Source: Candidatus Methanophagales archaeon
GTDB taxonomy: Archaea; Halobacteriota; Syntropharchaeia; Alkanophagales; Methanospirareceae
Length of the DNA: 49,482 nt
Direction: 5' to 3'
Assembly (NCBI GenBank): GCA_025966525.1
Contig: JAPDIG010000004.1
Coordinates: forward strand, 1 to 49,482
Position numbers and translations under genes: made by a program. The notes under the pieces were generated by a model. The model did no database searches. It saw nothing but the letters and a program-made list of their open reading frames with translations, and was not told the DNA's origin. Below, one piece after another: positions 18,520 through 43,138 of this stretch (position 1 is its first letter; each line of letters opens with the position of its first letter).

Positions 18520-18646
18520 GGGCATAGCGGCCATAGCGGCGGGGAAACTCCCGGTCTCATTCCGAACCCGGCAGATAAGCCCGTCAGCGTTCCTTACTGT
18601 ACTGAGTTGCGCGAGCACTCGGGAACTAAGGATCGCTGCTATGCCC
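18520..18646 (+). rRNA. rrf: 5S rRNA (stand-alone)
   Basis: GCGGCCATAGCGG..CTCATTCCGAACCCGG.AGATAAGCC..GTACTG..GCGCGAG..GGGAA archaeal 5S signature; termini GGGCATAGC/GCTATGCCC pair. Confidence 0.97.
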
Positions 18647-27148: not shown

Positions 27149-27219
27149 TGCGGCAACCGGGATTCGAACCCGGGTTACAGGCTTGGGAAGCCCGTGTCCT
27201 ACCGCTAGACTATTGCCGC
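27149..27219 (-). tRNA. tRNA-Gly(CCC), no intron, CCA not encoded
   Basis: GCGGCAA/TTGCCGC acceptor stem, CGGGC-TTCCCAA-GCCTG anticodon arm, GTTCGAATC T-loop. Confidence 0.97.
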
Positions 27220-36366: not shown

Positions 36367-36439
36367 GGGGCAGTAGGGTAGCCAGGTATCCTCGTGGCTT
36401 TGGGAGCCATGGACCCCAGTTCAAATCTGGGCTGCCCCA
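36367..36439 (+). tRNA. tRNA-Pro(UGG), no intron, CCA not encoded
   Basis: GGGGCAG/CTGCCCC acceptor stem, GTGGC-TTTGGGA-GCCAT anticodon arm, GTTCAAATC T-loop. Confidence 0.97.
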
Positions 36440-39387: not shown

Positions 39388-40938
39388 TCAGCTTCCAAAG
39401 TCCATCACCTTCGCCTTCATATCGGAAAGCTCTACAAGCGTTGCACACCCCGGAACAGGGGTTATATCCCTCTTTTTCTGATATGGTGTTTGTGATTGCC
39501 ACGCTCCGGAATTTATAAGTAATACATTCCGATATTTAGAAATACCAACGGTATGAGTATGCCCGCAATGGAATATGTCAGGAACGGGGTCAATTACTCC
39601 ATAATCGTGCCCGTCAGGAACAATAGAGACCATATTCCCGTATATTGGGGCAATATGTCGCCTTCTAAGCATCTCAACCATCGTTTCATCGGGATTTGAG
39701 TAATTCAGCCGCGATACCGAGTTAACAAAATCATCGTATGATTGCCCATGATATATCAAGACAAGCTTGCCTCCAATCTTTATGTATGCGGGATTGCTCA
39801 CAAAGTACGTATTATTAGGGAAGAGCTTCCTGAGGTTCTCTGGTAAGGGAGGTTGTGGCTCTGCACTTCGAACGGCATCATGATTTCCAGGTGCTACCAC
39901 CACGTGTATATGAGAGGGGAAATCGTGAAAATATCCTGCCGCTGTTTTATATTGCTCTTCTATATCCATAATTGACAAATCGTCCTCCTGACCCGGATAT
40001 ACACCTATTCCATCCACGATATCGCCAGCAACAATTAGATACGCAATTCCCATGCTTTTGGCTTCGTCTTTCAACCACTGCACGAAACTACCCCACGATT
40101 CTTCCAAAAATGTGTTGCTTCCAACATGCATATCAGAGATGAATACCGCATATACGGGTCTTTGCTCCTCATGCCCTTCTTTTTTCTCGTCAGAACTATA
40201 TCCATAATTGGTATCGGAGTTGTGATTGGAATTGGATTTGAATGAAAAAGGTAAAGGTGATTGAGAAGTTGAAGATGGGAAAGGCACATCAGGGTGTACT
40301 ACCCTATTTGCAAACAAAAAACCCCCGTCAGATAAAGAACCGGTAACGCCTATTACCTCATCAGGTATTATTTCCTCTTGACGTGGCAAGATAATCACGA
40401 AATTCCCCGTAGGGTCTTCCAATTCCACGCGGAGATTCCCTTTTGCCGTTTTGTTTATCGAAGAAACCATTCCCACCACCGATACCTCTTCGCTTCTCCT
40501 TCCATTTTTAATAAATCTTATCTGTCCGCAGTTCATCCTCCGTTTTATTATCCCGCTTATCCGTTCATATCTATCGAGGAAATGCGGTAAAAAATCTTTG
40601 CGGTTCACACCACTTCGGCTATCCACGAACGATTTAATTATAGCTGGTTCAGGTACGGATGCTTGCGGTTGTTTTTGGAAGCCGTTGTTTTCTCCCTTTT
40701 TTTCTCCATTTTCCGCCCGGCTATTTTTGAGAAATTCGGCTATATGCCCGGTAGAAATCACAAAAATCGAGGGGTCTAACGAATTAGTCATGCTTTTCAC
40801 TATTTCGTTTACATCGAGGTGACTTTCGGCTTCAGATTGATTCAATAGTTCAATCGCTTCTGGCTGGACTTGAAATCCCAAATCGGCAAACCTCTTTACT
40901 ATTTCTATCCCATTCTTTTTGCCATTTCTCACAGCCAT
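39388..40938 (-). CDS. polB: DNA polymerase D small (proofreading) subunit DP1
   Basis: ISDMHVGS, AGDIVDGIGVYP, PGNHD, YHG.S, RRHIAP and GHTH motifs. Confidence 0.95.
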   Translation of the reverse strand: MAVRNGKKNGIEIVKRFADLGFQVQPEAIELLNQSEAESHLDVNEIVKSMTNSLDPSIFVISTGHIAEFLKNSRAENGEKKGENNGFQKQPQASVPEPAIIKSFVDSRSGVNRKDFLPHFLDRYERISGIIKRRMNCGQIRFIKNGRRSEEVSVVGMVSSINKTAKGNLRVELEDPTGNFVIILPRQEEIIPDEVIGVTGSLSDGGFLFANRVVHPDVPFPSSTSQSPLPFSFKSNSNHNSDTNYGYSSDEKKEGHEEQRPVYAVFISDMHVGSNTFLEESWGSFVQWLKDEAKSMGIAYLIVAGDIVDGIGVYPGQEDDLSIMDIEEQYKTAAGYFHDFPSHIHVVVAPGNHDAVRSAEPQPPLPENLRKLFPNNTYFVSNPAYIKIGGKLVLIYHGQSYDDFVNSVSRLNYSNPDETMVEMLRRRHIAPIYGNMVSIVPDGHDYGVIDPVPDIFHCGHTHTVGISKYRNVLLINSGAWQSQTPYQKKRDITPVPGCATLVELSDMKAKVMDFGS

Positions 40939-41390
40939 TCCTTTACCTTCGCTTCTAAATATTGCTTTGGCAGCGCTCCTTGTATGACGTCCACAGGCTC
41001 ACCATTTTTAAAGATGAACAAGGTGGGTATAGCCATTATCGCAAATTCAGTAGCTACTCGCGGGTTCTCATCCACATTAAGTTTTCCAAATACGACTTTA
41101 CCGGCATATTCTTTTGACAATTCCTCTATTACCGGCGCAACCATTCTGCAAGGAGCACACCAGGGAGCCCAACAATCCACAACGACCAGTGGATATTTCC
41201 TTACAGTTTCTACAAAGCTATCGTCATCTATCGTCAGAGGATGGTCTATTATCCCCTCTTCTTTCTTTCTACCTTCTTTCATTGCTTTTATCTCCGCTTC
41301 CATCTCTCGCATCTTTCGCTCCTTTATTCTCTCTATCTCCATCTCCTCTTCCGTATAATTTATACGATTTTTTCCTCTTTCTTCTCTCAT
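40929..41390 (-). CDS. trxA: Thioredoxin with N-terminal charged helix
   Basis: WAPWCAPC, LNVDEN and IPT motifs. Confidence 0.93.
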   Translation of the reverse strand: MREERGKNRINYTEEEMEIERIKERKMREMEAEIKAMKEGRKKEEGIIDHPLTIDDDSFVETVRKYPLVVVDCWAPWCAPCRMVAPVIEELSKEYAGKVVFGKLNVDENPRVATEFAIMAIPTLFIFKNGEPVDVIQGALPKQYLEAKVKEWL

Positions 41391-41469
41391 ATCTCTTCCT
41401 CGGTATTTGTTGATTTTTAAGGTATAGTATTGAATTTGATAAAACTTGTGCTTTATACATAAGAAAGTT

Positions 41470-41628
41470 TTTTGTGCCGTATTGTGGTTGCCTCTAAACG
41501 GTCATTGCCATCTTTCGAAGGAGGCGTACCGCAGGGACCGTGCAATACGGCGAGGTTTGTAGCCCTTCGTTTGCCATAGTGATCATCCTTCGCTTTTCCG
41601 CGAGGTCACACTACTCTTCGAAAAGGGC
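41470..41628 (-). ncRNA. Two-hairpin box H/ACA pseudouridylation guide RNA
   Basis: Hairpin 1 GCCCTTT/GAAGGGC with a K-turn-like TGA/ATGA pair and ACA (41558-41560). Hairpin 2 GCCGTATTG/CAATACGGC with ACA (41473-41475). TATA box upstream; GC-rich island in an AT-rich gap. Confidence 0.85.
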
Positions 41629-41650
41629 ATTTTTATATCTATTCTTCTTA

Positions 41651-41658
41651 TACTTAAA
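41651..41658 (-). promoter_or_regulatory. TATA box of the H/ACA RNA
   Basis: TTTAAGTA on the minus strand, 22 nt before the first hairpin. Confidence 0.6.
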
Positions 41659-41659
41659 T

Positions 41660-43138
41660 CTAAAGATAATTCGATTTGGTGCTATGAAGGGGCACAGAAA
41701 AAGCTTTTTCCACTGATGGTCGATGGATAGCATTGTAAGAGCAGAAAGGAATTATTCGATGGTCAGGCGTGGCATAATGGATGCCGCATCTCTTAACCCT
41801 TTCCAGATCGAAATTATAGGCGTCCTGGAAGTGCATTGCACCGATAAAAAGCGCTTTGCGATGAAACTCCGCAAGAGCTTCTCGATTGCCTATTCCCAGT
41901 ATACTCGATAGTGAAGTCACAGAATCAATACCCTTTGGCGCCTTGTCCTTATCTATAAACCTCCTTAACGCAGATGCCAGTCCTGCTATTGCTCTTATTT
42001 TACCAATCCGCGATTTGCTTATCTCTTCTGCAGTATCCAGCAGGAACTCCATAAACCCTTCAACATCTATAAATTCGGTTATTGGTGTGAACCTCCCGTT
42101 TTCTACAAATACATACGTTGCGGCGCCGCAATGTGGGTGTACCGTGAATTCCAACTGTGGCACTTTCTTCCACGCTTCTACAAAATAAGAGACCGGCAGA
42201 ACAAAAGGTACGGGATAAAAGCTCTCTTTGGGTATTTCTCCGTCCGTTTGCTCTTCCAGAAGGTTTATGAAATCAGGAATTGTTATTCTTCCCTTTTTTC
42301 TCTCTGATTCATCTACTCTTCCTTCAAAAGCGATGGGTTGCGCATTCACACCCTTTACAATATCCAGGTTCTCGGCGGCAAATCGCACGATGTCCCCCAT
42401 CTGGTCGTCATTCACACCGCGCATAAGCGTGGGCACAAGCACTACACTTTTTAATCCGCCCCTCCTACAACTCTCTATTGCTTTTAACTTTGTTTTTAAC
42501 GCTGGTATCCCTCTTAATTTCTTATATGGCTCTTCAGTCACACCATCGAACTGCAAATAAACTGTATGCAAACCCGCTTCTTTTAGACGACTACAAAACG
42601 CTTCGCTCTTTGCCAGCGCTATTCCATTCGTTGCCACTTGAATATGCGAAAAACCAAGCTCACGTGCCATTTTTACTATATCTTCAAATCCCGCTCTTAT
42701 TGTCGGTTCACCACCCGCAAACTGTACCGCGGGGCAAGGGGGCATTTCACTCCTCAGTAGTTCCATCATTTCCCTCAACTGTTCCATCGTTGGCTCATAG
42801 ACGTAGCCTGTGACAGCAGCATTTGCAAAACACGTGGGGCATCTCTGATTGCACCTGTTCGTGAGGTCAATAAGTGCAAGTGCGGTAGAACTCTTATGCT
42901 CCGGGCAGAGACCACAATCAAAAGGGCAGCCCGTATCAGTTTTTGTGAGCGTGATCCCCGCCTTGCCCTCGTAGCGCCATTTTGAGAATTTGTTATATAA
43001 TGCAGCATCCGACCAGTATACGTCATCAAACTCACCATGCTTCTCACATTTCTTCTTTATCAGTATCCTGCCCTCGGATTCGTACACCTCCGCGTCTATA
43101 ACTTCGAGACATTCCGGACATAATGATTTCGTTTTCAT
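41660..43138 (-). CDS. tes: Tetraether lipid synthase (Tes / GDGT-MAS radical SAM)
   Basis: SLCPEC..C.KHG N-terminal metal site, GCPFDCGLC..H, TNRCNQRCPTCFANA, HPHCG, MHFQDAYNFDLERVKRCGIHY and PFCSYN motifs. Confidence 0.9.
   Translation of the reverse strand: MKTKSLCPECLEVIDAEVYESEGRILIKKKCEKHGEFDDVYWSDAALYNKFSKWRYEGKAGITLTKTDTGCPFDCGLCPEHKSSTALALIDLTNRCNQRCPTCFANAAVTGYVYEPTMEQLREMMELLRSEMPPCPAVQFAGGEPTIRAGFEDIVKMARELGFSHIQVATNGIALAKSEAFCSRLKEAGLHTVYLQFDGVTEEPYKKLRGIPALKTKLKAIESCRRGGLKSVVLVPTLMRGVNDDQMGDIVRFAAENLDIVKGVNAQPIAFEGRVDESERKKGRITIPDFINLLEEQTDGEIPKESFYPVPFVLPVSYFVEAWKKVPQLEFTVHPHCGAATYVFVENGRFTPITEFIDVEGFMEFLLDTAEEISKSRIGKIRAIAGLASALRRFIDKDKAPKGIDSVTSLSSILGIGNREALAEFHRKALFIGAMHFQDAYNFDLERVKRCGIHYATPDHRIIPFCSYNAIHRPSVEKAFSVPLHSTKSNYL

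Follow-up and report, generated by a model that had tools for sequence, protein, structure and literature searches.

A conserved two-hairpin box H/ACA guide RNA gene of Candidatus Methanophagales (ANME-1), most likely directed at two uridines of the peptidyl-transferase centre

The gap between a radical-SAM gene and a thioredoxin gene in a contig of a Candidatus Methanophagales archaeon raises the question of whether an RNA gene is located there and, if so, what this RNA does. The contig is JAPDIG010000004.1 (GenBank assembly GCA_025966525.1); its positions 1 to 49,482, read on the forward strand, were analysed as a whole and are called the window below. An initial annotation, made from the sequence alone, described the minus strand of this gap as a two-hairpin box H/ACA guide RNA aimed at two uridines of the peptidyl-transferase centre in the 23S ribosomal RNA (rRNA). 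The analysis presented here leads to a similar answer, which we hold with considerable confidence: the locus is a conserved, unannotated gene of a box H/ACA guide small RNA (sRNA), which most likely directs the formation of pseudouridine (Ψ) at these two uridines. Its mechanism and targets are inferred from the anatomy of the RNA, its complementarity to rRNA, covariation, and homology.

The minus strand from 41628 to 41473 corresponds to a 156-nt RNA consisting of two hairpin–pocket–hairpin units, each closed by an ACA box (Table 1). Hairpin 1 has a lower stem of 7 bp (GCCCUUU/GAAGGGC), which is followed by one base and the ACA, and its pocket strands are UCGAAGA on the 5' side and GGCAAAC on the 3' side. 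Above the pocket, an upper stem of 6 bp leads to a U.U pair with tandem G.A pairs (UGA ... GGAUGAU) and then to a short apical stem-loop. The lower stem of hairpin 2, GCCGUAUUG/CAAUACGGC, contains 9 bp, and the pocket strands are CACGGUC (5') and CAACCA (3'). The bases of the 3' guide that pair with the target (GCAAAC in hairpin 1 and AACC in hairpin 2) begin 14 nt before the ACA in either unit, as had been claimed initially, and the distance from the upper stem to the ACA is 15 nt. The ACA spacing of both hairpins, and in hairpin 1 also the 6 bp between the pocket and the kink-turn (K-turn), agree with the archaeal H/ACA rules, according to which the target position is 14–15 nt from the ACA and the pocket is 5–6 bp from the K-turn (PMC2377435).

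The fold of the 156-nt strand has an energy of −55.5 kcal/mol (z = −3.7), and 0/200 dinucleotide shuffles were equally stable. The hairpin–internal loop–hairpin–ACA architecture is present in both units, with 97% of cells paired both in 24 and in 50 distinct sequences, as compared to 35–54% in slid controls. Together with the homology to the Rfam family RF00064 described below, these results agree with the two-hairpin box H/ACA structure put forward in the initial annotation. An archaeal guide is expected to carry a K-turn or K-loop above a helix of 5–6 bp that contains no more than one bulged base. The K-turns of both hairpins were assigned by eye, and no tool scored them. In hairpin 1, the proposed K-turn is supported by inspection, as the U.U pair and tandem G.A pairs lie above 6 bp; its bases A23, T44, G45, and A46 are invariant in the alignment A1, and binding of L7Ae would be expected at this site.

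The two pockets imply the targets GUUUGC-U-A-CUUCGA and GGUU-U-A-GACCGU. Since the host assembly lacks 16S and 23S rRNA, the targets were tested on other species of the same genus. Both sequences are present exactly in the 23S rRNA of the two same-genus genomes that have one, and also in 12/12 genomes of the family with the sRNA and an assembled domain V, where they are 90 nt apart. Alignment to E. coli rrlH, with the landmarks A2451, U2585, and A2602 in register, places the two target uridines at C2496 and U2586 (hereafter Ec2496 and Ec2586), i.e., at the positions predicted beforehand. Every U of the same-genus 16S and 23S rRNAs was then scored against the pocket strands. For hairpin 1, U2562 (Ec2496; numbering of the G001 23S rRNA) ranks first with 12 bp (6+6), the next best site has 7 bp, and the score is equalled by 0/300 shuffled guides. 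For hairpin 2, U2652 (Ec2586) ranks first with 10 bp (4+6), and the second-best site, U1361, has 9 bp, only 2 bp of them on the 3' guide. The 1.49 Mb host genome has no exact occurrence of either target pattern. It can be stated with high confidence that hairpin 1 presents the U at the Ec2496 equivalent. Hairpin 2 most likely presents the U2586 equivalent, and this assignment is favoured with clearly more reserve. In this way, the locus provides two precise, testable Ψ predictions in the peptidyl-transferase centre.

The covariation between guide and target is the strongest in silico support for hairpin 1 as a guide. The target/guide pair of hairpin 1 at Ec2499 is U/A in the host family (f1), C/G in family f4 and the genome G100, and A/U in the genome G110; at Ec2491, the pair is U/A or C/G across families. 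Three target/guide base-pair states at one position represent an unusually clear case of in silico guide–target co-evolution. When guides were compared with targets in a matrix, 6/7 hairpin 1 guides reached their highest score, alone or tied, with the target of their own lineage; the guide of the genome G032 was judged on the 23S rRNA of another genus of its family and forms 5+5 bp with the f4 target. Within the family, the bases of the guides are either invariant or conserved to at least 90%, and the junction base facing the target U takes four values in hairpin 1 (G/U/C/A at 41575, preceding GCAAAC) and three values in hairpin 2 (C/A/U at 41490, preceding AACC). As for the stems, covariation across relatives had been proposed as a check, and it was found in one half of the RNA. 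Among 50 distinct sequences, hairpin 1 shows compensatory double changes in two of the seven lower-stem pairs, two of the six upper-stem pairs, and one apical pair; in hairpin 2, this expectation did not hold, as discussed below. The covariation score was reached by 0/500 shuffles, which overstates the support, since the related sequences are not independent.

The host family is taken here as ANME-1/Methanophagales. A BLASTN search revealed the sRNA in 21/24 other genomes of the family and in 0/16 genomes outside it. The covariance model R1, built from 24 copies (alignment A1), matches 60 of the 66 family genomes, including the host, and 12 of the 14 genera, as well as 1/13 other genomes of the class. 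Even at E ≤ 10, R1 has no match in the family genomes G012, G014, and G024 or in G025 and G026 of family f2. Apparently, R1 or its first-look filter misses diverged copies, since f2 carries a hairpin 2-like unit that R1 does not match. In the 23S rRNA of G014 (L046; host family, genus g12), in which no sRNA was detected at this threshold, each target is one base off, with GCUUGC in place of GUUUGC and GAACGU in place of GACCGU. An exact 24-nt hairpin 2 pattern was found at 50 loci in a collection of species-representative genomes; 23 of these loci are labelled Methanophagales, Methanophagaceae, ANME-1, or Methanospirareceae, and the others have coarse or odd labels. The sequencing runs containing the stretch are mostly hydrothermal vent or sediment metagenomes.

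Several peculiarities of individual copies can be noted. A full ANME-1-type sRNA, with scores of 158–171 bits, is present in L099, L133, and L142, which belong to bins titled Bathyarchaeia, Desulfobacteria, and Nitrosotalea; these are probably mis-binned ANME-1 contigs. The genomes G015 (L009 and L023) and G003 (L011 and L024) have two sRNA copies each, located on separate contigs, which can be explained by either strain mixture or duplication. The second copy of G003 (L024:1421-1615) and a copy of G011 (L020:1394-1614) contain a G+C-rich insertion of 40–65 nt in the apical loop of hairpin 1. The insertion consists of imperfect repeats with units like CGACGAACGCGAG; the pockets and stems are intact.

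A comparison with Rfam indicated to which RNAs the locus is related. RF00064 (HgcG, Pab40) aligns with it end to end: hairpins 1 and 2 are collinear, and the 65 model positions of the third hairpin are replaced by 8 nt. The same model finds full three-hairpin RNAs with 30–49 bits in four genomes from other families of the same class and with 90 bits in G040, which belongs to the same phylum; in the family of G040, it matches 30/31 genomes, 24 of them above the cut-off. Given the collinear alignment and the intermediate-scoring relatives, the locus is homologous to a known H/ACA RNA but has diverged and become shorter. By homology, hairpins 1 and 2 of the three-hairpin RNA variously named HgcG, Pf7, Pab40, or Afu4 are orthologous to this ANME-1 RNA. 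It had been expected that standard annotation would miss the gene, and indeed the locus has no Rfam match at the gathering score. With this finding, the genomes of a methane-oxidising lineage that is uncultured and ecologically important gain an RNA gene missed by annotation.

The positions in Pyrococcus abyssi and E. coli can be connected through three Rlu sites, which in E. coli we take to be 2457, 2605, and 2580. In P. abyssi, Pab35 makes the three Ψ that are made by RluE, RluB, and RluC in E. coli, and the Pab35 sites are 2549, 2697, and 2672 (PMC2377435), so that the offset between the two numberings is 92. The same offset ties P. abyssi 2678 to H. marismortui 2621, i.e., Ec2586 (PMC2584109). 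Since the offset is constant, P. abyssi 2588 corresponds to Ec2496 and 2678 to Ec2586. Pab40 motif 1 guides Ψ2588 in the P. abyssi 23S rRNA, where it was detected with the reagent CMCT; the modification was also obtained in vitro (Muller et al. 2008, PMC2377435). Therefore, an archaeal guide for Ec2496 is not new, and the initial expectation that such a guide would be notable is not supported. Hairpin 1 of HgcG/Pab40/Pf7 (RF00064; Pyrococcus and Thermococcus) and Afu4 (Archaeoglobus fulgidus) is aimed at the same U as hairpin 1 of ANME-1.

Similar precedents were found for hairpin 2. For motif 2 of Afu4, Pf7, and Pho40, the predicted target is the equivalent of P. abyssi 2678, and a Ψ occupies this position in H. 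marismortui, H. halobium, Drosophila, and mouse (PMC2377435). These motifs share with the ANME-1 hairpin an AACC(C) 3' guide, a GGUC-type 5' guide, and the predicted target Ec2586. In haloarchaea, HP1 is described as a homologue of Pf7 stem II aimed at Ψ2621, and no stem I homologue was found there (Grosjean et al. 2008, PMC2584109), and the motif of Hvo1 directed at L2621 is listed among the validated ones (Toffano-Nioche et al. 2015, PMC4652768). In Pyrococcus, Archaeoglobus, and haloarchaea, the two sites and their guides have been described before, and the locus represents neither a new mechanism nor a new modification site.

The ANME-1 RNA also has distinctive features. As compared to HgcG/Pab40, it lacks the third hairpin, which is the guide for helix 69 (P. 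abyssi 2016). As compared to HgcG/Pab40/Pf7/Afu4 together, the guide bases differ where the 23S rRNA differs, the K-turn of hairpin 2 contains UA, and the score is below the Rfam cut-off. A likeness to Pab40-type motif 2, for which two competing folds were reported, is the ambiguous fold of ANME-1 hairpin 2 (Muller et al. 2008, PMC2377435). The haloarchaeal RNAs HP1/HP2 (Hvo1/Hvo2 in Haloferax volcanii) resemble the ANME-1 RNA in that HP1 is assigned Ψ2621 of H. marismortui, which is the hairpin 2 target. On the basis of published descriptions only, haloarchaea have retained stems II and III without stem I, whereas ANME-1 has retained I and II without III. Eukaryotic H/ACA snoRNAs address the same 25S/28S positions: the Ψ at P. 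abyssi 2588 is highly conserved in eukaryal large rRNAs, and 2678 is modified in Drosophila and mouse; however, the guides of eukaryotes contain H as well as ACA boxes, use a spacing of 16 nt, and lack a K-turn (PMC2377435). In the literature searched, no paper was found that pairs ANME-1 with H/ACA or Methanophagales with pseudouridine.

The host genome encodes Cbf5 (441 bits), Nop10 (80 bits), Gar1 (47 bits), and L7Ae (93 bits), each above the curated cut-off. By analogy with other members of the family, the sRNA would be transcribed from its own TATA box, L7Ae would sit on the K-turn of each hairpin, and Cbf5, Nop10, and Gar1 would occupy the lower stem and the ACA box. The pocket strands would then pair with the 23S rRNA on both sides of an unpaired U-N, and Cbf5 would isomerise this U.

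A number of observations weigh against the interpretation of the locus as a guide for both uridines. The host assembly (94.8% complete) has no 23S or 16S match with RF02540 and RF01959. The score of RF00064 is 33.3 bits (E 1.3e-7, in E-value mode), and the gathering cut-off of 77 is not reached. In the matrix of guides and targets, the score of the G095 guide is lower by 0.5 for its own target than for that of another lineage. The remaining observations concern hairpin 2 and are in favour of an alternative explanation, according to which the RNA is a genuine H/ACA sRNA with hairpin 1 as its only guide, and hairpin 2 is refolded, inactive at U2586, retargeted like Pab40 motif 2, or a structural or assembly module. 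Both the minimum free energy structure and RNAalifold favour pairing of the 5' guide ACGGUC with the internal GACCGU, which is a part of the K-turn strand. The upper stem is irregular and consists of 3 bp, a 1x5 internal loop, and 3–4 bp; the non-bulged K-turn strand reads UA, and the relatives outside the family displayed, as well as the Rfam consensus, read GA. The stems of hairpin 2 are invariant within the family and, since they never vary, have no covariation support; in the alignment A3, this invariance is partly by construction, its loci having been fetched with the exact hairpin 2 pattern. The hairpin 2 score is equalled by 5/300 shuffled guides, and the 9 bp of U1361 belong to the same side of the balance. 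The 3' guide forms only 4 bp with the target, and this strand is described as the more important one (PMC2377435). In addition, replacement of G by U in the K-turn of motif 2 in P. abyssi (G85U) abolishes the 2678 modification and redirects the motif to 1932 (PMC2377435); the U in ANME-1 hairpin 2 may or may not occupy the same position. Because of the competing fold and the non-standard K-turn, the target of hairpin 2 is less certain. Both features were absent from the initial annotation, the description of which is accurate in every checkable detail.

Nevertheless, hairpin 2 shows the pattern of a working guide. Its pocket strands and the UA are invariant family-wide, while the junction base varies and the adjoining 3'-strand bulge varies in sequence and length, which argues for a selected function. 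The ACA spacing of 15 nt is correct, and the lower stem has compensatory differences from the homologous stems of families f2, f3, and f9. U2652 (Ec2586) is the top-scoring site, and its competitor is paired with the 3' guide by 2 bp only. K-turns with a non-G base at the position of this UA are known to fold. Homologous hairpins are assigned the same U in Haloferax, Pf7, and Afu4 (PMC2584109, PMC4652768, PMC2377435). We therefore regard guiding by hairpin 1 alone as possible but unlikely. Far less probable is a cis element, i.e., a terminator or 3' untranslated region (radical-SAM gene) or a 5' leader (thioredoxin gene), which is suggested by the position of the RNA in a 269-nt gap between two same-strand genes and by a thioredoxin-like start after the RNA in several homologues displayed. 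Against it, the upstream flank differs among homologues and the RNA is kept, the RNA has its own TATA-like box and T-tract, it aligns with the H/ACA family RF00064, and its bipartite complementarity to 23S rRNA covaries with the target across families; a scan for sigma-70 promoters and intrinsic terminators, which does not extend to archaeal signals, found none. Even more improbable is a chance match to rRNA, with the conserved RNA having a different function. By itself, the complementarity of hairpin 2 is only moderately unusual, as the shuffled guides indicated, and would permit this; however, no shuffled guide reached the hairpin 1 score, the two sites coincide exactly with those to which homologous hairpins are assigned in other archaea, and neither target pattern has an exact match in the host genome. 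A two-target guide RNA, with hairpin 1 assigned more firmly than hairpin 2, is preferred to these explanations.

The missing third hairpin was considered separately. A model of hairpin 3 (R2) was built from five relatives (alignment A2). R2 finds hairpin 3 in 4/5 genomes of the class outside the host family and, at E ≤ 1, in 0/5 genomes of the family (G000, G001, G002, G005, and G011). A motif scan aimed at a helix 69 guide recovered hairpin 1, missed hairpin 2, and otherwise returned only long candidates resembling coding sequence; the result is a weak negative and does not prove that such a guide is absent. In the sister family f2 of the same order (L146 in G025 and L147 in G026), there is a two-hairpin gene in which a hairpin 2-like unit is followed by a helix 69-type hairpin 3, and hairpin 1 is absent. 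The f2 gene resembles the ANME-1 gene in the related lower stem of hairpin 2 (GCCGUACU/AGUACGGC), a 15-nt ACA spacing, and an upstream TATA-like sequence. It differs in the pocket strands, GAGGUC and AUACCCA or ACACCCA, and the Ec2586 site is not ranked first in the scan. Because its 3' guide is one base out of register with AACC, this unit may present a different U.

In same-genus 23S rRNA, the loop of helix 69 has the sequence ACUCUGAC, as compared to ACUAUAAC in G028. Thus, the loop of helix 69 is altered in the very family that lacks its guide hairpin, as the loop of the same-genus 23S rRNA is unlike that of G028 and E. coli. At the equivalents of Ec1911–1920, the sequence is GUAACUCUGACCC in the 23S rRNA of G001 (L034) and GUAACUAUAACCC in G028 and E. 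coli. These observations can be combined in a joint scenario, which we consider rather improbable as a whole, and less probable than guiding by hairpin 1 alone. According to it, ANME-1 would have lost the helix 69-targeting hairpin of an ancestral three-hairpin RNA with no replacement, its ribosome would do without the near-universal helix 69 Ψ, hairpins of this gene would be kept or dropped as independent modules across the phylum, and the UA K-turn would still recruit L7Ae. The combinations are hairpins 1 and 2 in ANME-1, 2 and 3 in the sister family and haloarchaea, and 1, 2, and 3 in other relatives, a set of patterns that shows modular evolution of multi-hairpin guides. If the scenario is true, a family-wide UA K-turn recruiting L7Ae would be the opposite outcome to that of the G-to-U change in P. 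abyssi.

Table 1. Coordinates of the H/ACA sRNA, its parts, and the adjacent candidate signals in the window
Feature	Positions	Strand	Description
Whole two-hairpin H/ACA sRNA, 156 nt	41473..41628	-	R1 covariance model 186.3 bits, exactly these coordinates; RF00064 33.3 bits; fold z = -3.7
Hairpin 1 with ACA box (41560-41558)	41558..41628	-	Lower stem 7 bp, pocket, upper stem 6 bp, K-turn, apical stem-loop
Hairpin 1 5' guide UCGAAG	41616..41621	-	Pairs with 23S CUUCGA (Ec2498-2503); invariant or at least 90% conserved in A1
Hairpin 1 3' guide GCAAAC	41569..41574	-	Pairs with 23S GUUUGC (Ec2490-2495)
Hairpin 1 K-turn	41582..41608	-	UGA (41608-41606) opposite AUGAU (41586-41582), C-stem and loop between them
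Hairpin 2 with ACA box (41475-41473)	41473..41551	-	9-bp lower stem, pocket, irregular upper stem, K-turn-like element
Hairpin 2 5' guide ACGGUC	41536..41541	-	Pairs with 23S GACCGU (Ec2588-2593); also able to pair with internal GACCGU 41503-41498
Hairpin 2 3' guide AACC	41486..41489	-	Pairs with 23S GGUU (Ec2582-2585)
Hairpin 2 K-turn-like element	41502..41528	-	UA (41528-41527) opposite AAUGA (41506-41502); by eye
TATA-like box TTTAAGTA	41651..41658	-	22 nt upstream of the first G of hairpin 1; putative promoter, judged from sequence
T-rich tract TTTCTT	41461..41466	-	7 nt past the second ACA; T-runs likewise placed in most homologues displayed

Both genes flanking the sRNA are on the minus strand: the radical-SAM gene occupies 41660-43138, the thioredoxin gene 40929-41390, and a DNA polymerase II small-subunit gene, also on the minus strand, lies beyond. 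The upstream TATA box that had been proposed is indeed present as TTTAAGTA (41658-41651) and begins 2 nt past the TAG stop (41662-41660) of the radical-SAM gene; a box of the TTTAAATA type with the same spacing was observed in most homologues displayed. The TTTCTT tract is a probable archaeal oligo-T terminator. A second A/T-rich box, ATATAAAA, is located directly before hairpin 1 (41631-41638, minus strand) and is kept in homologues too; if transcription starts at the hairpin, this box is too close to be the TATA box of the sRNA.

Contigs of two metatranscriptome runs (X14 and X16; tiny, about 10 million letters) were compared with positions 40900-42400. They partly cover the thioredoxin and radical-SAM genes on either side, with a gap in coverage at 41410-41868, which is uninformative either way. 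With the gathering thresholds of Rfam, only a 5S rRNA (98.9 bits) and two tRNAs were detected in the window, at 18523-18644 (plus strand), 27149-27219 (minus strand), and 36367-36439 (plus strand), respectively; the 5S rRNA stands apart, without a neighbouring 16S or 23S rRNA.

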